A stretch of DNA of 64,000 nucleotides from a virus: the UHGV virus genome UHGV-1364187, one strand, 5' to 3'. A model generated the notes under the pieces. It was not told the DNA's origin, searched no databases, and saw only the letters and a list, made by a program, of their open reading frames with translations. The position numbers were made by a program, and so were the translations under genes. Position 1 is the first letter of the stretch. Each line of letters starts with the position of its first letter. Shown piece after piece: positions 3,806-60,238 of the stretch.

Positions 3806-4204
3806 TTACAAATCTTGTTTAAAATATACATATTCTATACCATCATCATCTGTTCTGACTATATAATCACTACCATCAGGAATTTCAACTACTCTAAATT
3901 TATCACTTTCATATTCTTCCACAATAGATATAAATAATTCATCTGTTCTGTTATAATCTGTAATAGCATTTATACTTATATAATTTGTTTCTAATATATC
4001 GTTACATACATAGAATGTATACTCTATACATATCATATTTTTTACATCATTAAGTTTACATTTTTCGTTTCTATTAAAGAGTACATTTTTAGAGTATATT
4101 TCTATACTCTCTGTATTATACTTACGTCTTAAGTACTCATATACAGTCTTCACTCTAAGAATGTTGTTTAATTGATTTGATAAAATTACTTTCATTATAA
4201 ACAT
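3806..4204 (-). CDS. Hypothetical protein, 132 aa
   Basis: ORF preceded by the conserved cassette (4205-4246). Confidence 0.5.
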   Translation of the reverse strand: MFIMKVILSNQLNNILRVKTVYEYLRRKYNTESIEIYSKNVLFNRNEKCKLNDVKNMICIEYTFYVCNDILETNYISINAITDYNRTDELFISIVEEYESDKFRVVEIPDGSDYIVRTDDDGIEYVYFKQDL

Positions 4205-4326: not shown

Positions 4327-5367
4327 ATGGTCTTAGAAGAAAATTTAAATGATATGGAAGTTATCAAAAGATACAAGCAATTTTTTAAGGAGATGATTTG
4401 GTTTAATAAACCAAACATATCTGAGCAAGAATTAGAAGATGTAATGAATTGGTCAATACAGAAGAGAATCAAAAATTCATCATTAGAATTATATGATTCT
4501 TATAAGGAAAAACGAGCAGATTCATCAGTATTAGAATGGCTAGAATACTTCTATGCTAATGAACCAATTATAACTCCCAATGGGGTTATGTTTAAAAAAC
4601 ATAATGAAGAGCTTAATCCTGTGAATAAAATGATACAGGGATTCTTAAAAACACGTGCTAAATACAAAAAAGAAATGTTTAAATATCCTAAAGGATCTCG
4701 TGAATTTGAAAAATATAACCTACTTCAACTTCTCTCCAAGATTGATGCTAATAGTATATATGGTTGTTTAGGTAATTGGAGTGCTGTATATTATAACGTA
4801 AATGTTGCTAGTTCAGTTACAGCATGTGGTAAATCTTCTATTTCAGCAGCAGGTTTAGCATTTGAACAGTTCTTAGCAAATAACGTTAAATTTAGAAAGT
4901 TAGACGAAGTTATAGTATTTATTAATCATATCATTAAAGAAAAACCAAATAGAAAATTCAATGATAAAGATATTCTAGATAGAGATATTACAGTAGAAGA
5001 ATGTTTTATAAAAGTAATGTCTACATGTGGTCATGGTTATACTCCTTCTATGGAAGATTGTGAAATCATATGGGATATTATTAGTAAACTTAACAGTGAA
5101 GATCTTAATAGAATATACTATAAGAATAATCTATTAGAATTCTTTGACAATAAAGTAATGACTAATATGGTTATAGAAGTATTAAAGAGACTCAATAAAC
5201 CTTGGATGGATCCGAATAAAGTTCCAAAAGAAATTGAACTTGAAATGGATACAATGTGGGATTTAGTAAGTGAATATGTATTTTATAAATATCAAATCAT
5301 TGATAGACAAGATAGATTAGAGTTTCTTCCAAGAAAAATTACATGTATTATAGACACCGACTCTTTT
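4327..5367 (+). CDS. Family B DNA polymerase, C-terminal (palm/thumb) polypeptide, exon 1
   Basis: Carries motif B (LLQLLSKIDANSIYGCLG, the K..NS.YG pattern) and motif C (IIDTDS). The ORF stops immediately after DTDSFA at the intron boundary. Strong RBS taaggaggaattagg. Confidence 0.8.
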
Positions 5368-5772
5368 GCATAATAAACTGTTTTATTATGTAAATAGGAG
5401 CATTATATAGTAATATATAATGAAAACCCTTTTAATTGCTGGGAAGCCTTAAAGCTCACCTGCCTATATTTTAATGAATATAGGAACGAAAGTAGAAACA
5501 AGTGGTGAGATAGTATATGGTGTAAACCTAAGTACTGCAAACAATGGGTAATCAGCAGCGAAGTTTCTTATAAAGTTATAAGAAGAACGTTCAACGACTA
5601 TCGAAAAGACATGTTTATATAAACATGGAACTGAGTAGAGTACACTCAAGTGAGTGGAAATGGAGGGGGTCTTATTTTATATAAGATCATGATATAGTCT
5701 GCTCACTATGGAAACATAGTGAAGTTCATAAGAGAACTGCATAGAATTAACGACTCTATGTGAACATAAAGG
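5368..5772 (+). ncRNA. Group I self-splicing intron, with no homing-endonuclease ORF, inside the DNA polymerase gene between motif C and KKRY
   Basis: A roughly 400-nt ORF-free segment, GC-richer than its surroundings. A P7-like pairing is visible (ACGACTAT ... ATAGTCT). The core AATCAGCAGCGAAG..AAGAAGAACGTTCAACGACTATC is shared with two other introns in the window. The flanking exons are in the same frame. The exact splice junction is uncertain by about 3 nt. Confidence 0.6.
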
Positions 5773-6849
5773 AATATTTTGAACTTAGATTTTTGGTATA
5801 GATTTATCAAAGATAAAGTAATCGGTATTGATATGAAAATTAAACATGAAATGTATGACATTGCAGAAATCATTAAAGCTGATGAATTTGGTGATAGAGA
5901 AATGATGAAGCCTGCAGAGATAGTAGATATCGAAGATGATTATGATTTCTATGAAGATGAAACAGTAGAAATGGAAAGATTAATCAATCCTGCAAAATTA
6001 GTACCAAATGACTCATTAAGATATTCTATAATAAATATTATAGCATACTTATGTGGTAATATGATTAATGAAGAGATGGTATTATACACAAAACAGAACA
6101 ATTCTTATAGTCCTGATAGACCATGTAGTCTTATTATGAAGAATGAATTCTTATTTAAAAGAGTTTTATTGACAAATGTAAAGAAAAGCTACGCTAGCAT
6201 CATAGAGGTTCAGGAAGGAAATATAGTACCATCTTCCAGTTCATTGGACGTGAAAGGATTACAAATTAGAAAATCAACACTACCAAAAAGAACAAGAGAT
6301 CAATTACAAAGTATATTATATGAAGATATACTAAACTCTGGAGATAATCTCGATCAAAGATGCATACTCAAAGATATTATATTATTAGAAAAACAAATTT
6401 ATAAATCACTTACATCTGGTAGTAAAGAATACTTTAGACCAGCACAAGTTAAAGCTATGGGATCATATGAAAATCCACTAAGAATTTCTGGATTTAAGGG
6501 ATGTGTTGTATGGAATGAGTTAACAGATCTTAATACAGAAAAACATGATCTTAATATTAGAAATGCTGTTGATATTATCAAAGTAGTTTTAAATGCAAAA
6601 ACTGTCGATAAATTAAAAGATTTTCCTGATGTATATGAGAGAGCTGTGAAGCTATTAAACGATCCATCATTTGCAGGGGGAATTAATGGTATATCTGTAC
6701 CATTAGGAGTAGAAACACCAGAGTGGTTATATCAAATTATCGATTATAATACAATTATTAATGATAATTTATCAGTAATGCCATTAGAAAGTGTAGATAT
6801 AATTATTGGAAATTCCAATATAAACTATTCAAATATGGTGCAAATGTAA
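5773..6849 (+). CDS. Family B DNA polymerase C-terminal polypeptide, exon 2
   Basis: Contains the KKRY-type motif (NVKKSYASII) and thumb-like sequence. It is in frame with exon 1 after intron removal. There is an in-frame TAA at 5767, so exon 2 cannot begin before 5770. Confidence 0.7.
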   Translation, partial: NILNLDFWYRFIKDKVIGIDMKIKHEMYDIAEIIKADEFGDREMMKPAEIVDIEDDYDFYEDETVEMERLINPAKLVPNDSLRYSIINIIAYLCGNMINEEMVLYTKQNNSYSPDRPCSLIMKNEFLFKRVLLTNVKKSYASIIEVQEGNIVPSSSSLDVKGLQIRKSTLPKRTRDQLQSILYEDILNSGDNLDQRCILKDIILLEKQIYKSLTSGSKEYFRPAQVKAMGSYENPLRISGFKGCVVWNELTDLNTEKHDLNIRNAVDIIKVVLNAKTVDKLKDFPDVYERAVKLLNDPSFAGGINGISVPLGVETPEWLYQIIDYNTIINDNLSVMPLESVDIIIGNSNINYSNMVQM

Positions 6850-16222: not shown

Positions 16223-16639
16223 TTTTTATTTACCCACTTTCATATTTCTTTATGTTTTCTTAGACACTCTATATTTATCAAATATTATATAGTAATAATT
16301 GATATCTTTAACTTAGTATAAATACCATGTTAAAAAAATAAATACTAGAGATTTTACTCTCTAGTATTTATATTATCATTTATGCATTTTAGATTAATGA
16401 TTTATCTTTAATCTTCATCATTTGAATAAGTATCTATATAATATTCATCTTCTATAGAACTTGTATGAACAGTTTCCGTATTTAGTACTTTATCTACTAA
16501 TCTTATACTAATTTTACTAATAGCTTCACTTATTTTCTTAGATACATAATATGTAACTGCTACATATCAAACTAATTTTACTACAAATTTATATCCAGTC
16601 ATAACTTTTTCCATATTAAACTTTTTCATATCTTATCTC

Positions 16640-16903
16640 TCCTTTTTTATTATTTACTACTCTTCGATTTGTTCTTCTGATTCTCTTTTTAATACACTTT
16701 TAATTTTAGATGATATTTTTGTAAAAACTTTCTTAATAAAATCTACACCACTTGTCATCATAACGAATATACTAAGTACGAATGCTGCACCTATCACTGC
16801 ACCAACAATAATCTCTCCAACTACTGTGAAGATGTCCTTATCAATTTTCTTTGTCTAAAGCTTTCTTGTAATCATTTGCAAATTGTACTAACTCTTTTTT
16901 CAT
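16640..16903 (-). pseudogene. Frameshifted small membrane-protein gene. The leader and start are duplicated from the 9020 locus.
   Basis: ATG at 16903 with the same leader as 9020. After 20 codons a frame change is needed to continue into a 62-codon TM-containing frame (DKDIFTVVGEIIVGAVIGAAFVLSIFVMM..). A second small ORF at 16383-16605 carries an in-frame TGA. Confidence 0.35.
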
Positions 16904-16995
16904 AACTAAACAACTCATTTTAATTTTTAATAACATAGACTAATTGTAATCTATATTCATATTGATAATATATAACTAAAATTTTGAATATTTAC

Positions 16996-17035
16996 AAAAA
17001 ATAAAGAAGAGTCTAATGACTCTTCTTTTATTATT
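16996..17035. terminator. Intrinsic terminator
   Basis: aaaaaataaagaagagtctaatgactcttcttttatt. Confidence 0.65.
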
Positions 17036-17050
17036 TATTTTATATCTTTA

Positions 17051-17782
17051 CTATTTTTCTCCATATGGATATTCTTCATTAGATATTTCTTTTATAACTT
17101 TATAAAGCATATCTTGAAAATATCTCCATTCCATACACACATCTCTCTTACTATATGCGGAAGAACATTTTCCCTCATGTGGAACTAAATATTTTCCTCC
17201 AGAAGGTCTTTCTTCAAATGTAAATCTACATTTATCATCTACTAAGTTAGCACATTTACCTCCCCATGATGCTGTAATATAATTATCATCATTATCGTTT
17301 CTACTTCTTAGATAATAAACTTTGTCTAATTCATCTTTCTCACAATCAACATCCCCTTCCCAATAATCTAATGTAACTAGACCTTTCTTTAATAATTCCA
17401 ATATTCCATTAACACTAAAATCTTGTACATCATATGGGGATAACTCACATCCCATACAATTACAACAATTTCCTTTACATTCAGAGCATAGAGAGCAATC
17501 TTCATTGTTCTCTATGTATAAAAAGTTTATTACTTTATTAATACGTGTATATAAACCATATATACCTTTTCTTAATTTACCGAAGAATGCTTTTACGTTA
17601 TCCTCTGTTTTGACATGGTCTAATTCTTTAAGTTTTGTGTTATAATTGATAAGTCTTTCTTGTAGTTTGTAGATATGATTTCTTAATAAACCAGATCTAA
17701 TATCTGAAACAAAAGACATATCAATTGTTTCTGGGTGCTCTAATAGTTCTGATATTTTTGATTTTAATTCATTCTTATTCAT
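17051..17782 (-). CDS. Cysteine-rich hypothetical protein, 243 aa
   Basis: Cysteine cluster CSLCSECKGNCCNCMGCE, plus further cysteines towards the C-terminus. Start overlaps the stop of the upstream gene. Confidence 0.45.
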   Translation of the reverse strand: MNKNELKSKISELLEHPETIDMSFVSDIRSGLLRNHIYKLQERLINYNTKLKELDHVKTEDNVKAFFGKLRKGIYGLYTRINKVINFLYIENNEDCSLCSECKGNCCNCMGCELSPYDVQDFSVNGILELLKKGLVTLDYWEGDVDCEKDELDKVYYLRSRNDNDDNYITASWGGKCANLVDDKCRFTFEERPSGGKYLVPHEGKCSSAYSKRDVCMEWRYFQDMLYKVIKEISNEEYPYGEK

Positions 17783-46911: not shown

Positions 46912-47225
46912 TATATAATTCCCCTTTCATAATCACTATATCTATAAAATGGATTGAATTGAACTTTTTGTTGTTCAAATTCTGGTTCGTGTTCTCCAGA
47001 ACCATCATCAATGAAATATCCATCTATACTATTTCCTGTATATGGATATTTACTATGGCATTTCAAACATTCAATATAACTTTCTCCATATTCACATGTC
47101 TGGAATGGTTTACCATTAACGTCGATATATGTCTCCTCAGTCATTGTTTCTATTATTCTAAAATGAATACTTCCACAATGTGGACATCTTGTTACATCTG
47201 TCAAAAATGCTGGGATAATTAACAT
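46911..47225 (-). CDS. Small zinc-ribbon protein
   Basis: Cys pairs CPHC ... CLKC, ending KY as in ORF 45961. Confidence 0.4.
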   Translation of the reverse strand: MLIIPAFLTDVTRCPHCGSIHFRIIETMTEETYIDVNGKPFQTCEYGESYIECLKCHSKYPYTGNSIDGYFIDDGSGEHEPEFEQQKVQFNPFYRYSDYERGII

Positions 47226-47230
47226 ATCAA

Positions 47231-47464
47231 TTACCCCCTTAGATTTGTTACTTTTGGTTTTGTAAACTTAACTTCTGATTCTTCACCTTGATAAACAATG
47301 ATAGTATCTTTAAATCTATCATTGTATTTGTTTGATATCTCTGTAAATAATCTAGCTTCTCCACCAACCATTACAGTTCCAGGAATATATTTTCTTCCTA
47401 TTTTCTTTTCTAATTCTAGTCTTTTCTTATGTTGCTCTTTTGAATATAGAAAATACTTAATCAT
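47231..47464 (-). CDS. Hypothetical protein, 77 aa
   Basis: ORF with RBS aaaggagga. Confidence 0.4.
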   Translation of the reverse strand: MIKYFLYSKEQHKKRLELEKKIGRKYIPGTVMVGGEARLFTEISNKYNDRFKDTIIVYQGEESEVKFTKPKVTNLRG

Positions 47465-53042: not shown

Positions 53043-53563
53043 TAGATATCAATCCTTTCTAGTGTAGAAAAATACATACTATAATGTTTATCCTGTGTTA
53101 CATGATAAGTTTCGTCTGTTATAACCCACTTATCTCTAGTTAATCTATCTGCTGGAAAGTAAGTATCGCCATCAAAGAATTCATCAAATTTTGTTACGAA
53201 AATTCTCTTAGTATAATCTAAGAATTCTCTATATACCCATCCTCCTCCAATAATAAAAATATCATCATCAGGATTTTCACAATCTAATAACAATATATCA
53301 TTTACAGAATGAACAACTTCTACACCAGGAATCTTTATATCTTTATGACTTAATACTATATTTCTTCTATCTGGCAATGGTCTACCAATACTTTCATAAG
53401 TCTTTCTTCCCATCACTACAGTATGACCTGTAGTGATGTCTTTAAAATGTTTTCTATCTTCTCTAACTATTCCCCAAGGTAATTCATTATCTCTACCTAT
53501 TATCATATTTCTAGATATAGCAACAATCATATTAATCATTATAATCTCTCCAATCTTTAACAA
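53042..53563 (-). CDS. folA: Dihydrofolate reductase
   Basis: MINMIVAISRNMIIGRDNELPW...VVMGRKTYESIG is the canonical DHFR N-terminus. Confidence 0.9.
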   Translation of the reverse strand: MLKIGEIIMINMIVAISRNMIIGRDNELPWGIVREDRKHFKDITTGHTVVMGRKTYESIGRPLPDRRNIVLSHKDIKIPGVEVVHSVNDILLLDCENPDDDIFIIGGGWVYREFLDYTKRIFVTKFDEFFDGDTYFPADRLTRDKWVITDETYHVTQDKHYSMYFSTLERIDI

Positions 53564-53985
53564 TATATCCAGGAATAAATGTAGCTGGAATATTATTTGG
53601 TTTTATTTCTGCTGGTACAAGACAATTATTATATAATGCTCTTTCTTGCTCCAACATTATTTGAGCTGGAGTGTACATTCCTTCCTTATTAGGAGCTATA
53701 TTATTTGTATCTATAGCTGGAACAAAATATGCTGGTCTTATTCTCTGAACTAATGTCTTCTTAAATACCATTCTTAAGCCTATAGCTTTAAGATAAGTAT
53801 GCATAATTTGTGCAGTTATATTATTAGTTTCATTATCTATTTGTACATCCACGTTATATGGATCATCAGTAAGAATATTCTTAGCTAATCTTCTACCATG
53901 TGTACTAGCACTATTGATAAGTAGCATTACTAATAATAACTCAGCATCTACGTGCATTAAATTTGAAGCTTCCATAGACCCACCA
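53532..53985 (-). CDS. RNA polymerase beta subunit C-fragment, exon 2
   Basis: GGSMEASNLM..INSASTHGRRLAKNILTDD..LKAIGLRMVF parallels the beta C-terminus GGQRFGEMEV..SDDVNGRTKMYKNIVDG..LKEIRSLGINI. Confidence 0.55.
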
Positions 53986-54448
53986 CTACACAAATTGTGT
54001 AGCAGACTATATCACCACCATATACTTTAAAAAAGTACTTAGGTGCCTCCCATTTCGGATATACTATATCCTACTCTACTCACTTCGTCTATATCTAATT
54101 TATTAGATATACCTTATTTTTAACTAGATTACTAGTATATTAGCTTTCGATAGTCGTTGAACTTTAATCTTTGAATATAGTTTTATATTTATATATTATA
54201 TTTGATATTATTCAAAGATTCTTAGCTGCTGATTGTAGATCTGTTACGTTAACTTAGCACCTATTATTGAATAGGCTTTTATCTCAGCATATCAACACAG
54301 AATCAATTTTTTCTGTCTTTCGACGACATTCACACCCATCCTTACGGATCATGTTGTAGTTTGATTCTGAATAACTACTTCCCAGACAAATTAAAGAGGT
54401 TTTTACTTCTATCTTTTTCAAGATAAAAGGCACATGTATGTCTATGCA
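53986..54448 (-). ncRNA. Group I intron in the RNAP beta gene
   Basis: Read on the minus strand it shares AATCAGCAGCtAAG..GTTCAACGACTATCGAAAG..GATATAGTCTGCT with the polymerase intron. Splicing CCAGT|..intron..G|TGGTGGG restores the frame as ..YSRTPVGGSMEAS.., which parallels the conserved beta segment ..YSLVTQQPLGG... Confidence 0.6.
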
Positions 54449-56219
54449 ACTGGTGTACGACTGTATGGTGACTCGTATAATTTACTTGCACGAGATCTTG
54501 TATTTTGCCCTCTTACATTAGTTGCTGATAAAGATGTTGTTGAGAATTTCTCTTCTGCAACTTGTTTTAATCTGTAATAATATATATGACCAGCAATAAG
54601 TTTTCTTCTAGTAGGTATGGCTCTATAATTACCCATAGAATCTTTTTGTTGAATCATAACTGTATAAGGTTCGATCCAATCAAAATGTTTATACATTTGA
54701 TCTAATAAATCTATACCATATGATTCTGTTATAGGTTCTATTTGGAAATGAATACAATCATAAGACTTGATACTGTCTAAGAATAATTTCTTATCTTGTT
54801 CTGACATATTGTCTACTATATTTTTTGTATATCTGTACATATTAGGACTTACAAAAGATAAGAAATCAAAGTACATTTGAAACGCTTCTTCATCTGTGCA
54901 TAATGGAGATCTCATTCTTTCTATAATTCTAGAACTTATAAAATTAGATTCCATTTCAATATGTTGTCCAGGATTAAGACGTCCTACTATACCTGCAGAA
55001 TTCCATATTGCGTCTGCATGTTTTCCATTGTCAAATAAAGGCATTAATTCTTCTGGTAAGAATCCAGCAATAACACCTTTACCTCCATATCTATTAGTAA
55101 TCTTATCACCAATTTGTATACGACTAACTTCATATACCATGAAATCAATTACTAAGAAAGAGAATTCATTATCTTTTTCATTCAAGAAATGTTGTCCGTC
55201 TAATATTCTCTTATGAAATAGATATAACTCTTCTAAGTCATATGATTTTTTAATACTTTTATCATTTACAATTGGTTCTAATACATTAACTATTTCTCTA
55301 GAGAATCTTTGTTGATTCATATAAATCATAGCTAATTGAGAGTATTTAGAATCTGTAAATAGTAATTCTGGATCGTTACAATATATATCACAATCTATTA
55401 GTACACCTGACCCTATTGTAACTTTAACATCAGAAGTCATTATTTTTCTTAATCTATCTTGGCTTGCAGAATAAAATTGTTCTTCATTTTTCTTTAGACG
55501 AGTACCCATAAGAATACCATCTTTTACCTCTTCTCCTACAAAAGGACATACTTTATAACTACCATCTTTACCATAAAGATTCAATGGAACGTTATTAGTA
55601 TTTATACTTATACGTTTTGGTTTGAATACTGGAGTATCAAATTTTGGACGAACAGCTTCGCTTAGAATAATACCATCTTCGCAAGTCTTAGCTATATTCA
55701 TAAATACTCCATTAAGATTTATACCATCCATCTTATTACCATAATCATCATAAGATGAGCTTTTTCTTATTACATCACCTTGTTTAATTACATCACCAAC
55801 TTTTTTACTATCCATATATTTATTATTATACTTATATCCATTTGTTTCTGTAAGATAATTATAATCTACTCTATGATATATAGTATAAGAATTATTAGTT
55901 GGATTGCGTAATATAAGAATATAATCATGTTCTGGTAAATGTTCAAATTTTGATATCTTAGCAACTATCTCATATTCCATATCAGCTAACAATACAGCAC
56001 TATTATATCTACCATATTCATTAGCATATCCAGTATCACAGAATGCGATTTCTGAATTAATAAGATCTGTTCTATGATCATTATGAACATTATACATCTT
56101 CTTTCTTGATGCTGCATTATGATTATTGAACGGTTCTTTCAATCCTTTAGACAATACGTAATCTAATTTCTTTGGAACGTATTGATCTATTCTTGTTAGT
56201 GGATCTGTTATTATTGCCA
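54449..56219 (-). CDS. RNA polymerase beta subunit C-fragment, exon 1
   Basis: GDKITNRYGGKGVIAG matches the beta motif (..NRHGNKGV..). The probable start is the ATG at 56219 after RBS caaggaggag; the track start at 56286 is upstream in frame. Confidence 0.6.
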
Positions 56220-56301
56220 TGTTTCTTCTCCTCCTTGAATGTTTAATATATGATAGATATAAGAAAAAGTTCATTATATCTATCATATATATAATATATA
56301 A

Positions 56302-56763
56302 TTATGCGACGTTTTGGATCATAGATAATATGTCATCTGTAGATGATGTTAACCCTACTTCATCTTCTTCTGGTTCTTCATAAGTATCAGATAGCATAGA
56401 TTTCATCTCTTCTAAGACAATTGTATTAAATACTGATCTAAACTCTGAGTCTGTATTAAGTTTATTCTTAAATTGTTTTTGAGAGAATTTCATATCACTT
56501 CTATCACCTAGGTACAAATATGCACCTGCACCATTAAGAACTCCACGTTGTTTTAAGAACATAAACATTGATAAATCTGCATCAAATCCATCACTTTGAC
56601 TAAATACTAATGGAACAGATTGACCAGCTTTATTTGTTCTTGATTTAACAAGTGTTACCTCTGTAATGTTTCCGTCTAAGTCGAATACTTCTCCTTCTTT
56701 TAACTTAGATCCATCATCAAATCTAATAATATTATTTGCTAAGTATATAGGTGTATTGCCGCC
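56302..56763 (-). CDS. UvsX/RecA-family recombinase, exon 2
   Basis: GGNTPIYLANNIIRFDDGSKLKEGEVF..VTLVKSRTNKAGQSVPLVF parallels UvsX GGGTGPMYSADTVFIIGKRQIKDG..VEKSRTVKEKSKF and RecA TTGGNALKFYASVRLD. Confidence 0.6.
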   Translation of the reverse strand, partial: GGNTPIYLANNIIRFDDGSKLKEGEVFDLDGNITEVTLVKSRTNKAGQSVPLVFSQSDGFDADLSMFMFLKQRGVLNGAGAYLYLGDRSDMKFSQKQFKNKLNTDSEFRSVFNTIVLEEMKSMLSDTYEEPEEDEVGLTSSTDDILSMIQNVA

Positions 56764-57138
56764 CATAATTTTATATTACATACGATCGCTACTCGTATTC
56801 TATAATTTTCATTATAGATTAGACTATATCTTCATCCTTATTATTAAGGAGCACTCCATTTCGAATACGCTTGTATTCTACTCTATTTCTAGATAGTCGT
56901 TGAACGTTCTTCTCATATAAGAAGCTTCGCTGCTGATTGTCCATTACAAATAAGACTTAGGATTTTGTCCATATCTCATACTAACCGCTTTTTTCTACTT
57001 TCGTAACCATCACGCTTATCTTTACAGATTACGTTGTGGTGGGTTAGTCTTTAGGAGTTCCCAGCAATTAAGAGTGTTTCCTAAATGCTCATTACTGAAC
57101 ATTCTCCCCAGTTATGCAATACGTTTAGGGAGTGATTC
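56764..57138 (-). ncRNA. Group I intron in the recombinase gene
   Basis: Read on the minus strand it has the same core as the other two introns: AATTGCTGGGAA..CGAAAGTAGAAA..AATCAGCAGCGAAGCTTCTTAT..AAGAAGAACGTTCAACGACTATC..GATATAGTCT. The boundaries are approximate. Confidence 0.55.
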
Positions 57139-57909
57139 GTCAACCTTCAAATATGATACTTGTGCTTTCTTACGTTGAGCAGGTGTAATAGCAACTGCTT
57201 GTGTAATATGATTGATTACAAATAAGATAATATTAGCAGCTTTTAATAATGGAATAATAGTTCTAAAGATCTTAGCATTAGCTTTAGCTGTTGCTGTTGT
57301 ACTCATCTGTCCTGACATTTCTTCTTCGTCAGAAAATTTCTCAGGCATTAATAATGCTAATGAATCTAAAATAACTACTGTAGGCTGTAATTTGTATAGC
57401 CTATTACCAAATTCATCATATAAACCAGTATCATATTCAAACTCACTTCTATTAGCAAGTTTGATATCACTAATCATCTTGATTCTTTGGAAGAAGTTTT
57501 CACATGTGATACCAGTATTTCTATGAATATATTTATCTTTAGCCTCTTCAGGTGTCATTTTAGCAAGTTTAAATAGTCTACTATTACTAATACCACCCTC
57601 AATATCTTCATGATATATAGCAGCATTAGGAAATGGTTTAACAATATTTCCAGCTGCTTGAATAGTCCATGTAGTTTTACCACATCCAGATCTACCAATA
57701 ATCATTACCATTGATCCATCTGCAATTCCAATAGAATAATATTGATATTGCTGACCGTCTGGAGTTTTTCCAATAGCTACAGTACCATTTCTAAAATCAA
57801 ATGTAAGAAATCCAGTTGAATATCCAACAGGTGTTTCTGTTTCAACTTTCATTCTATAATCTTTAGATTTTTCTACAGATTTTCTAAACATATCTACCAA
57901 TAAGCTCAT
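57139..57909 (-). CDS. UvsX/RecA-family recombinase, exon 1
   Basis: Walker A GRSGCGKTTWTIQAA and Walker B VVILDSLALL. NAKIFRTIIPLLKAANIILFVINHI parallels UvsX TMKSLFRIVTPYFSTKNIPCIAINHT. Confidence 0.65.
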
Positions 57910-59050: not shown

Positions 59051-60238
59051 CTATAGTTCTTTTCCAGTTGAAGTATTAACTAGGATTGATTTTGGACTTG
59101 ATTGTTCATTGTTAATTGTTTGAGTTTTATTTGGTTCACTTGATTTCTTTTTATTCTTAAAGAAACCAGGTTTAGTTGTTCTTACATTAAACTCATCTTC
59201 TTCAATTTCCATTTTGTTAATATCACTATAGAATGAATCTTGAGTTTTATTAACTCTACTTGCAACTTCTTGATATTTTGTATAAATATCTTGAAGTTCT
59301 TTTACTGGTAATTTTAATCCAGCGATAATAATAATAGCATATTGATCTTCGCCATCTAATACTGGTTGAATATGATCGTATGCTTCATATGGTTCTCCAA
59401 CAACATCTTTAATTGCTCTATAAGAGTAATCAATGATATTCTTTGTTTCTTCATTGATATTCCATACAACACCAATACGTTTGCATGATGGTTGTTCAAT
59501 ATCAATTGATTTTGTATTTTGGATAGCTTTAACTAATAAGTCATCTAACTGTTCTTGAGTTTTAATATCTCTTCCGATAGATACTTTTTCAATTAAACTA
59601 TATCCAGGATTGTTGATAAGTTTAAAGTGGTCTGTATCATCAATATTTTGACTTCCTTCTCTTAATACTGAACCAGTAATAACTTTAAGCTCTTCTACGA
59701 ATAATTCATTAGCCATCTTTTCAGCTGCAACTTTATTACCTTTAGCATCTGATAAGAATTTTGCATTACTAATAGTATGAACTACGTATTGTGGTAAGAA
59801 TTGTTTAAATAGATTAACTGTATTTCCTAATCCTCTTGCATCTGCATGGAATCCCATTAATGGGAATTGATGTACTGTGATGCCTGTATTTTCTGTAATG
59901 TAGTTTCCTAATACAGGAGCACCACCACATCCAGTTCCACCTTCAGCACCAAATACAATTACAACTGCATCGTCATCTTCTTCTAAGAATTCTGGTAATA
60001 ATTCTTCTAATTCTCCACCATTAAGAGATTGCTCCATCATATCAGCACCAAGTTTTGTTTCTTTACCTGCACCATTAATGTCTCCAATGATGATTGAAAT
60101 ATCTCTATACTCTACTGGGATGTCTTTGTCAGTGCTATTGATAAGTTTAACATATTCTCTAGATATTGCACCTTTTTCAATTGCATCAATACTTGCTTTG
60201 TTTCCTGCTGCACCAACACCGAATAATTTTGTTTTCAT
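59051..60238 (-). CDS. Tubulin/FtsZ-family GTPase (PhuZ/TubZ-like)
   Basis: N-terminal GVGAAGNKA matches the FtsZ GVGGGGNNA stretch. The T4-loop-like AEGGTGCGGAP matches GGGTGSG. The size, 395 aa, is appropriate. Confidence 0.6.
   Translation of the reverse strand: MKTKLFGVGAAGNKASIDAIEKGAISREYVKLINSTDKDIPVEYRDISIIIGDINGAGKETKLGADMMEQSLNGGELEELLPEFLEEDDDAVVIVFGAEGGTGCGGAPVLGNYITENTGITVHQFPLMGFHADARGLGNTVNLFKQFLPQYVVHTISNAKFLSDAKGNKVAAEKMANELFVEELKVITGSVLREGSQNIDDTDHFKLINNPGYSLIEKVSIGRDIKTQEQLDDLLVKAIQNTKSIDIEQPSCKRIGVVWNINEETKNIIDYSYRAIKDVVGEPYEAYDHIQPVLDGEDQYAIIIIAGLKLPVKELQDIYTKYQEVASRVNKTQDSFYSDINKMEIEEDEFNVRTTKPGFFKNKKKSSEPNKTQTINNEQSSPKSILVNTSTGKEL

Follow-up and report, generated by a model that had tools for sequence, protein, structure and literature searches.

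An uncultured AR9-like jumbo phage has predicted group I introns without open reading frames in three genes, those for DNA polymerase, RNA polymerase beta and UvsX

Introduction

The closest described counterparts of the introns studied here are found in Twort-like staphylococcal phages and in jumbo phages related to AR9. The orf142 introns of Staphylococcus phage Twort, said to have been described by Landthaler and Shub in 1999, are reportedly small and without ORFs, and a crystal structure of the Twort ribozyme exists. In the jumbo phage AR9, the virion RNA polymerase genes g078 and g145 are annotated as joined coding sequences with an intron homing endonuclease (PMC12350094), and PhiPA3 has an intron endonuclease in an RNA polymerase subunit gene (PMC12908238). 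Phage introns without an ORF are common, 13 of 45 introns in Bastillevirinae being without a nuclease loop (PMC11878797), and such copies, together with phage intron biology in general, have been reviewed (PMC3984707).

Here, we have analysed a 64,000-nucleotide stretch of the virus genome UHGV-1364187 (the window). A first-pass annotation, made from the letters alone, had proposed that group I introns devoid of endonuclease ORFs interrupt its DNA polymerase, RNA polymerase beta and UvsX genes, and Rfam, a dedicated family model, covariation and Pfam all support this proposal. According to our analysis, these are very probably three ORF-less IA group I introns in essential genes, predicted to be spliced, which entered by homing or recombination and are not recent duplicates of one another.

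Results

The interrupted genes and their phage

The window is AT-rich (26.8% G+C) and, as placed from its proteins, belongs to an uncultured jumbo phage of gut metagenome origin related to AR9 and PBS1. Identity to the AR9 counterparts is 40% for UvsX exon 1 (g086) and 32% for the polymerase (g152), the gene order UvsX, nvRNAP beta C-terminal half, NAD ligase is common to the window and AR9, and a protein identical to that of beta exon 2 is present on a 256,505-bp gut-metagenome contig. UvsX has more than 2,000 homologues, 55-80% identical among the matches listed, and judging by this number the clade is large and uncultured. Megablast searches with the pol and the beta/UvsX intron regions against cultured phages returned no close DNA relative, and short tblastn queries spanning the pol and beta junctions gave no match.

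Each segment had been proposed to split a conserved protein. Every pair of flanking ORFs aligns with one protein, and PHROG and Pfam matches together with homologue alignments identify the two members as its N and C parts and not as independent genes. The boundaries, however, needed correction, as all three 5' ends and one 3' end had been set wrong by 2-12 nt. By these matches the interrupted genes are those of a divergent family B DNA polymerase, the C-terminal half of nvRNAP beta and UvsX. The corrected coordinates are collected in Table 1.

Table 1. Predicted exons, introns and intron elements in the window
Feature	Position	Strand	Description
pol exon 1	4327..5364	+	Family B (divDNApol) catalytic subunit; ends ...IIDTDS (motif C)
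Intron 1 (pol)	5365..5772	+	408 nt, phase 0, group I IA-type, no ORF
Intron 1 internal guide	5395..5400	+	UAGGAG, directly upstream of P2 (5401-5422)
Intron 1 P3	5427-5432 with 5662-5667	+
Intron 1 P4	5437-5442 with 5552-5557	+
Intron 1 P7 5' strand	5596..5601	+	GACUAU; partner AUAGUC 5694-5699, G-binding helix
Intron 1 P9	5704-5721	+
pol exon 2	5773..6849	+	NILNLDFWYRF...; PF20286 positions 426-697, PHROG 2927 positions 429-702
nvRNAP beta exon 2	53532..53983	-	GU GGG UCU AUG GAA...; ..CGSMEASNLMH..
Intron 2 (beta)	53984..54443	-	460 nt, phase 1, divergent member of the same family as introns 1 and 3
Intron 2 P6a stem	54166..54221	-	GAAUCUUUGAAUA / UAUUCAAAGAUU, with a ~30-nt AT-rich loop
nvRNAP beta exon 1	54444..56286	-	AR9 g089 homologue; ends ...YSRTPVA and base 1 of a codon split by the intron
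UvsX exon 2	56302..56763	-	GGNTPIYLANN...; PHROG 97 positions 363-472
Intron 3 (UvsX)	56764..57126	-	363 nt, phase 0, group I IA-type, no ORF
UvsX exon 1	57127..57909	-	PHROG 97; ends ...YLKVDESLP

Among the other genes of the window, the ORF at 53045-53563 (-) and others encode DHFR, thymidylate synthase, dCMP deaminase and guanylate kinase, and the ORF at 3809-4204 has a faint match to 5-hmdU DNA kinase (E = 0.008). Since the DNA of AR9 and PBS1 contains uracil, these nucleotide genes suggest that the window phage may use thymine or a modified base. A 395-aa ORF (59054-60238, -) matches the tubulin/FtsZ GTPase family weakly (PF00091, E = 9e-5, under the curated cut-off) and may be a PhuZ-like phage tubulin. 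The ORF-poor stretches at 1-1663, 16223-17053 and 46912-47233 have no Rfam match and no tRNA; the first two are also without any ORF of at least 70 aa.

The three segments are group I introns of IA type

The description of the segments as ORF-free and relatively GC-rich proved correct. The longest internal ORF has 76 aa and is antisense, Pfam (E <= 1) gives no match for any of the seven intron ORFs, an intron-encoded endonuclease ORF of the GIY-YIG, HNH, LAGLIDADG, His-Cys box or EDxHD/Vsr kind is absent, and intron G+C is 30-34%, above that of the window. The long identical cores said to be shared by all three were confirmed only in part. Each of the three segments has one copy of GTTCAACGACTATC, which is present nowhere else in the window, and AATCAGCAGCGAAG is found at the same three sites with one mismatch in the beta copy, but AATTGCTGGGAA and CGAAAGTAGAAA are confined to the pol and UvsX copies, the beta copy having AATTTGTCTGGGAA and CGAAAGACAGAAA in their place. 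To judge from their distribution, most of these shared strings belong to the catalytic core, which is conserved throughout a very large family of phage introns. The GACTAT/ATAGTC pairing, noticed earlier as P7-like, could be placed as P7 in the pol copy, and the large AT-rich insertion reported for the beta copy is real and is sited in the P6a loop (54221-54166). The beta intron has in addition a P4 with a bulged U and insertions in P5 and P7.1/P7.2 as well as in P6a.

A scan with the Rfam group I model (Intron_gpI, RF00028), as the first-pass annotation had suggested, recovered two of the three introns above the gathering score of 50 bits. The pol copy scored 81.6 bits (5377-5721) and the UvsX copy 80.4 bits when its region was searched alone, with the beta copy at 10.9 bits only. 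At the gathering threshold the pol intron was the sole match of the whole-window scan, and neither the UvsX nor the beta copy came up in a 3.7-kb E-value scan, the former being lost to speed filters. Because of the poor Rfam score of the beta copy we built a family model, R1, with a seed of the pol and UvsX copies and 10 IMG/VR introns of like architecture, from which the beta copy was left out. Run over the 64 kb with default filters, R1 matched exactly three sites, scoring 247.8 bits for UvsX, 209.2 bits for pol and 58.8 bits for beta, and the match to the beta copy (E about 1e-14) was full length (54406-53987).

A group I secondary structure was recovered in all three copies and covariation accompanies it. 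In the 12-member seed, 97.2% of cells are paired, vs 33-44% when the partners are slid, and 37 of the 63 pairs have changes on both sides; the observed values were reached by none of 500 shuffles. The covarying helices are P3, P5, P5a-c, P6/P6a, P7.2 and P9, whereas P4 and P7 are invariant and for this reason give no covariation signal. P7.1 hairpins are seen in all copies and, as P7.1/P7.2 are placed between the P7 5' strand and the P3 3' strand, the introns are of IA type. With an extended P5 in addition, they have the architecture of subgroup IA, the classical type in phages, and may be IA2-like.

Splice sites and spliced products

The first-pass annotation had proposed to define P1, P10 and the exact splice sites; a P1 with a U.G pair was found in each of the three copies and a P10 of 3 bp in the beta copy. 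The P1-P2 hairpin with U.G folds in all three, the guide lying directly 5' of P2 each time, and the last intron base is a G in each copy (5772, 56764 and 53984). The spliced frames are colinear with intronless homologues, with identical residue spacing in all three genes. Splicing and the exact junctions (5364/5773, 54444/53983 and 57127/56763) are predictions made from these features.

In the polymerase, the break after motif C was correctly located at DTDS, but the intron starts at 5365 and not at 5368. P1 pairs CUCU (5361-5364) with GGAG (5397-5400), with U5364.G5397 at the splice site, and an in-frame UAA lies 3 codons past it. Exon 1 matches PF00136, PF20286 and PHROG 2927 (profile positions 16-331), and full-length intronless homologues align to exon 2 from their residue ~346 on. 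The spacing of DTDS/NILNLDFWY equals that of AR9 (DTDSNFLMLD) and of seven intronless homologues (DTDSxIxSxDxWY), and the alternative junction DTDSF/NIL was discarded as having one residue too many compared to these.

In the beta gene, exon 1 (PF00562, PHROG 3295) is given with a predicted start, an alternative gene call having 592 aa. P1 pairs GCAU (54447-54444) with GUGC (54433-54430), with U54444.G54433 at the splice site, which is straddled by a UAG stop, and the terminal G at 53984 is two bases past P9. The junction first proposed, TPV/GGSME (54448..53986), allows no P1 helix to form and leaves the product short of one residue; with the intron of Table 1 the predicted product reads TPVA-C-GSME. 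Two further candidates were rejected, TPV/CSGGSME as one residue too long and YSR/CSGG because the conserved TPV is lost. The spliced YSRTPVACGSMEASNL has the spacing of the intronless gene of the metagenomic relative L147 (FSRTPVSFGNMEISNL) and of AR9, BpSp and SA1 (TPVR[IL]G[NE]ME), and the C-terminal 291 aa of spliced beta align in a single piece to the beta subunits of AR9, PBS1, phiR1-37 and OBP. Nor does the site align with the canonical PLGG, as had been claimed, but with R[IF]G[NE]ME, which by our reading corresponds to the bacterial RFGEME segment. As a separate observation, the C-terminal ~250 aa of the nvRNAP beta homologue of Bacillus phage BpSp (gp158, L143) are annotated as a separate 'hypothetical protein', and this gene may be interrupted upstream too.

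For UvsX, the break before GGNTP was confirmed with its 3' end at 56764; its 5' end is at 57126 instead of 57138, 12 nt upstream, and the junction VD/GGNTP that follows from the latter would delete the conserved ESLP. P1 pairs CUCCCU (57132-57127) with GGGGAG (57109-57104), with U57127.G57109 at the splice site and an in-frame UAA 5 codons past it. ESLP/GGNTPIY is identical to the sequence of an intronless homologue (P0004, 80% identity), AR9 having DESIPGGTSCIY.

Gene callers list the exon-2 ORFs as separate genes, that of beta having an ATG three codons in, the RNAP subunits of AR9-like phages are naturally split into N- and C-terminal halves, and the beta copy is weak in Rfam. All of this could be read as six ORFs expressed as separate polypeptides that assemble, like the split RNAP subunits, around decayed relics that no longer splice. 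We regard this as highly improbable, as each of the three copies retains all the core pairings, the U.G pair, the terminal G and the sequences of J6/7, J8/7 and P7, and the breaks fall inside the pol motif C and other tightly conserved segments which are continuous in every intronless homologue. Moreover, pol exon 2 has no ATG near the junction and its ORF opens with TTG at 5779.

Relationship of the three copies and size of the family

The three introns had been called closely related, which their sequences do not support. The pol and UvsX copies differ by 31% (274 aligned columns) and the beta copy differs from both by ~38%. Furthermore, the UvsX copy is nearer to introns of two unrelated contigs, L024 (distance 0.25, in a capsid/tail-like gene) and L096 (0.26, in an SSB gene). 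A neighbour-joining tree puts the three copies together, weakly, with a bootstrap of 76/200 (38%) for the three-copy clade, or 39/200 (20%) when purine/pyrimidine coding is used.

The family to which they belong is very extended. The core motif is present in at least 120 IMG/VR contigs, R1 has at least 152 matches in 93 sources, with up to about 10 per contig, and blastn matched 425 records of cultured phages at 70-75% nucleotide similarity, among them tail-tube introns of Twort-like phages and sequences of Bastillevirinae, crAss-like and T4-like phages. Three IMG/VR contigs (L026, L095 and L018) have 7-10 family matches within single 9-14 kb stretches, so that some phages are far more densely invaded than the window phage. 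The P7.1/P7.2 module of the beta copy also occurs in other metagenomic introns, and a 28-mer specific to the beta intron is absent from IMG/VR. Six JGI metagenome contigs with this 28-mer were considered as orthologues and discarded, being other family members in other genes.

The three copies have nevertheless one peculiarity in common. The octamer TTGCATA[AG] (TTGCATAR) lies at or just after each 5' splice site (5366-5373, +; 57119-57112, -; 54449-54442, -), always in frame as GCA-stop, and it supplies the stop codon in all three introns. It has only 14 sites on both strands of the window, it is missing at the same place in 147 other family members, and it is kept in the orthologous UvsX intron of the relative L148 described below. 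Together with the similar pol and UvsX guides, this hints at some common history inside the genome.

Such a history could mean, in line with the first-pass annotation, that the copies are paralogues which multiplied inside the phage without an endonuclease, for example by reverse splicing followed by reverse transcription and recombination. That route would use target RNAs with 4-6 bases complementary to the guide, and both the guides (UAGGAG, GGGGAG) and the 5' exon ends (CUCU/, CUCCCU/) of pol and UvsX are similar; the shared octamer, the weak grouping in the tree and the absence of an endonuclease domain among the 65 window ORFs are also in its favour. We nevertheless consider it unlikely, given the 31-38% divergence between copies, the low bootstrap values and the closer relatives of the UvsX copy on other contigs. 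The beta copy, in addition, has a different guide (GUGC) and a P7.1/P7.2 module that it shares with introns from elsewhere, and its orthologue in the relative L126 carries an ORF. Finally, no reverse transcriptase family is found among the window ORFs, and mobility by reverse splicing has no direct experimental support (PMC3984707).

Patchy presence, mosaics and an ORF-bearing orthologue

The closest relative found, L147 (UvsX 80% identical), has neither the UvsX nor the beta intron, and more than 100 UvsX homologues are full length. The UvsX intron is present in L148 (89% identical), where its orthologue occupies L148:1140-1520 (ena:ERZ27303229:k141_1537092). The 5' two thirds of this intron are ~93% identical to the window UvsX copy, with compensatory changes in P2, but its P7.1/P7.2 matches instead that of the window pol intron (5602-5650), so that it looks like a mosaic made by recombination between family members. 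Another contig, L134 (L134:1-1960, ena:ERZ963690 k127_27274), has an intron downstream of a beta' N-terminal RNAP gene (...ILINRP), and the 3' half of this intron, with the 3' exon, is 100% identical to the window beta intron and exon 2. This join may be a true recombinant, or the assembly may have produced a chimera by way of the shared core, and on either reading there would be a fourth family member, in the beta' gene and outside the window; a tblastn search of the window for this beta' gene was negative. We have also observed that the beta gene of a 50%-identical relative has two family introns, after ...ILNMCGV and after TPIRFG (L124:1771-2150, 2706-2776; L125:650-801), and that L124 and L125 have the exon and the first ~20 intron bases in common and then different intron bodies.

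The L148 module, the L134 join and TTGCATAR hint at recombination among copies, with endonuclease-free spread not established by them. One could go further and take the UUGCAUAR common to the three 5' ends, the match of target (CUCYYU) and guide (GGAG) in pol and UvsX and the module exchange of L148 and L134 as signs of a genome-resident family that moves and reshuffles inside the phage lineage without an endonuclease. We give this only a small chance; if true, it would be natural evidence, in a virus, for reverse-splicing transposition or for recombination between paralogous introns.

Several findings suggest a history linked to endonucleases. The relative L126, whose beta exon 2 is 62% identical and which has the same DHFR gene downstream, contains an orthologous beta intron whose P6a loop, AT-rich in the window copy, holds an ORF. 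This ORF ends 24 nt upstream of the same AAAGTTCAACG and is a C-terminal fragment with an HTH domain as its only match; it may belong to a nuclease gene. A search for a full-length homologue of it found none. Besides, a related intron in Enterocloster phage CB457P2 adjoins a gene annotated as an I-TevI-like endonuclease. In the window itself, Pfam detected no endonuclease family and no reverse transcriptase family in the 65 ORFs of at least 70 aa over 64 kb, nor any endonuclease domain in the neighbours of the three intron-bearing genes; novel nuclease families exist beyond those screened (PMC12350094). In view of the ORF-bearing orthologue, the I-TevI-like neighbour, the patchy distribution and the frequency of ORF-less introns in phages, the earlier conclusion that the family spreads without its own endonuclease is not supported.

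Discussion

From the anatomy of the three introns, the pre-mRNAs would be spliced in the usual two steps, with guanosine as the initiator; if any of the introns depends on a protein cofactor, the beta copy would be the likeliest. The guide just upstream of P2 would pair with the final 4-6 bases of the exon, leaving the U.G pair at the cleavage site, the guanosine pocket of P7 would be built by the P3-P8 and P4-P6 domains, and the terminal G would afterwards occupy this pocket while the exons are ligated. Ligation would make three conserved segments whole again, motif C in the polymerase, R-x-G-x-M-E in beta and ESLP-GGNTP in UvsX. On unspliced RNA, the in-frame stop located 0-5 codons into each intron could keep ribosomes off the ribozyme.

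Regarding their origin, the introns belong to a very large family whose members have invaded many genes and swap segments. Entry to these conserved sites was most likely driven by endonucleases (homing) or took place by recombination in mixed infections, and their present lack of ORFs would reflect either the loss of an endonuclease gene or its absence from these copies from the start; the P6a loop of the beta intron would be the site where a relative has such an ORF. Homing endonucleases are usually gained and lost in cycles, and this picture agrees with the patchy presence of the introns, with the orthologue that bears an ORF and with how large the family is. The window introns are ordinary members of a widespread phage intron family, and they leave the current view of intron mobility unchanged.

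Their interest lies elsewhere. Three essential genes of a large clade of uncultured gut jumbo phages are now called as six ORFs, for which the predicted spliced products are given here. Three sites are added to those of phage group I introns, one after motif C in a divergent family B polymerase, one in the R-x-G-x-M-E segment of beta and one in UvsX. In addition, only one of the three introns was returned by the whole-window Rfam scan, a second being lost to the speed filters and the third having a score below the gathering score.

When compared to known systems, an ORF-less intron at a conserved site is also the situation of collaborative (trans) homing (PMC3984707). This requires a free-standing endonuclease, and Pfam found none in the 64 kb of the window or beside the intron-bearing genes, so that collaborative homing is not demonstrated for these introns. 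Like them, the self-splicing introns of T4 td, nrdB and sunY and of the SPO1 and Bastille DNA polymerases are of IA type, interrupt highly conserved codons of DNA-metabolism genes and have an early in-frame stop. Those introns mostly contain GIY-YIG or HNH endonuclease genes, unlike the window introns, and the SPO1 and Bastille polymerases are of family A, whereas the window intron is in a divergent family B enzyme, right after DTDS.

In AR9/PBS1 and PhiPA3, which like the window phage are jumbo phages with multisubunit RNAPs, self-splicing introns have entered RNAP genes too, but their introns carry endonucleases and those of the window do not. In addition, the AR9 genes for UvsX (g086), nvRNAP beta-C (g089) and the polymerase (g152) are uninterrupted coding sequences by annotation, in contrast to their window counterparts, and R1 had no match in the AR9 and S6 loci examined.

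The Twort-like introns (orf142 and the tail-tube gene, IA2) differ in their hosts, which are Herelleviridae and not an AR9-like jumbo myovirus, and in the genes and insertion sites. Both kinds of phage have several introns each, three in one gene in Twort and one in each of three genes in the window. The IA architecture with P7.1/P7.2 is common to both, and in Kayvirus phiIPLA-RODI the sequence directly after the tail-tube gene is ~74% identical to a 5' portion of the UvsX intron that makes up 58% of it and runs from P1/P2 as far as the P6a 5' strand.
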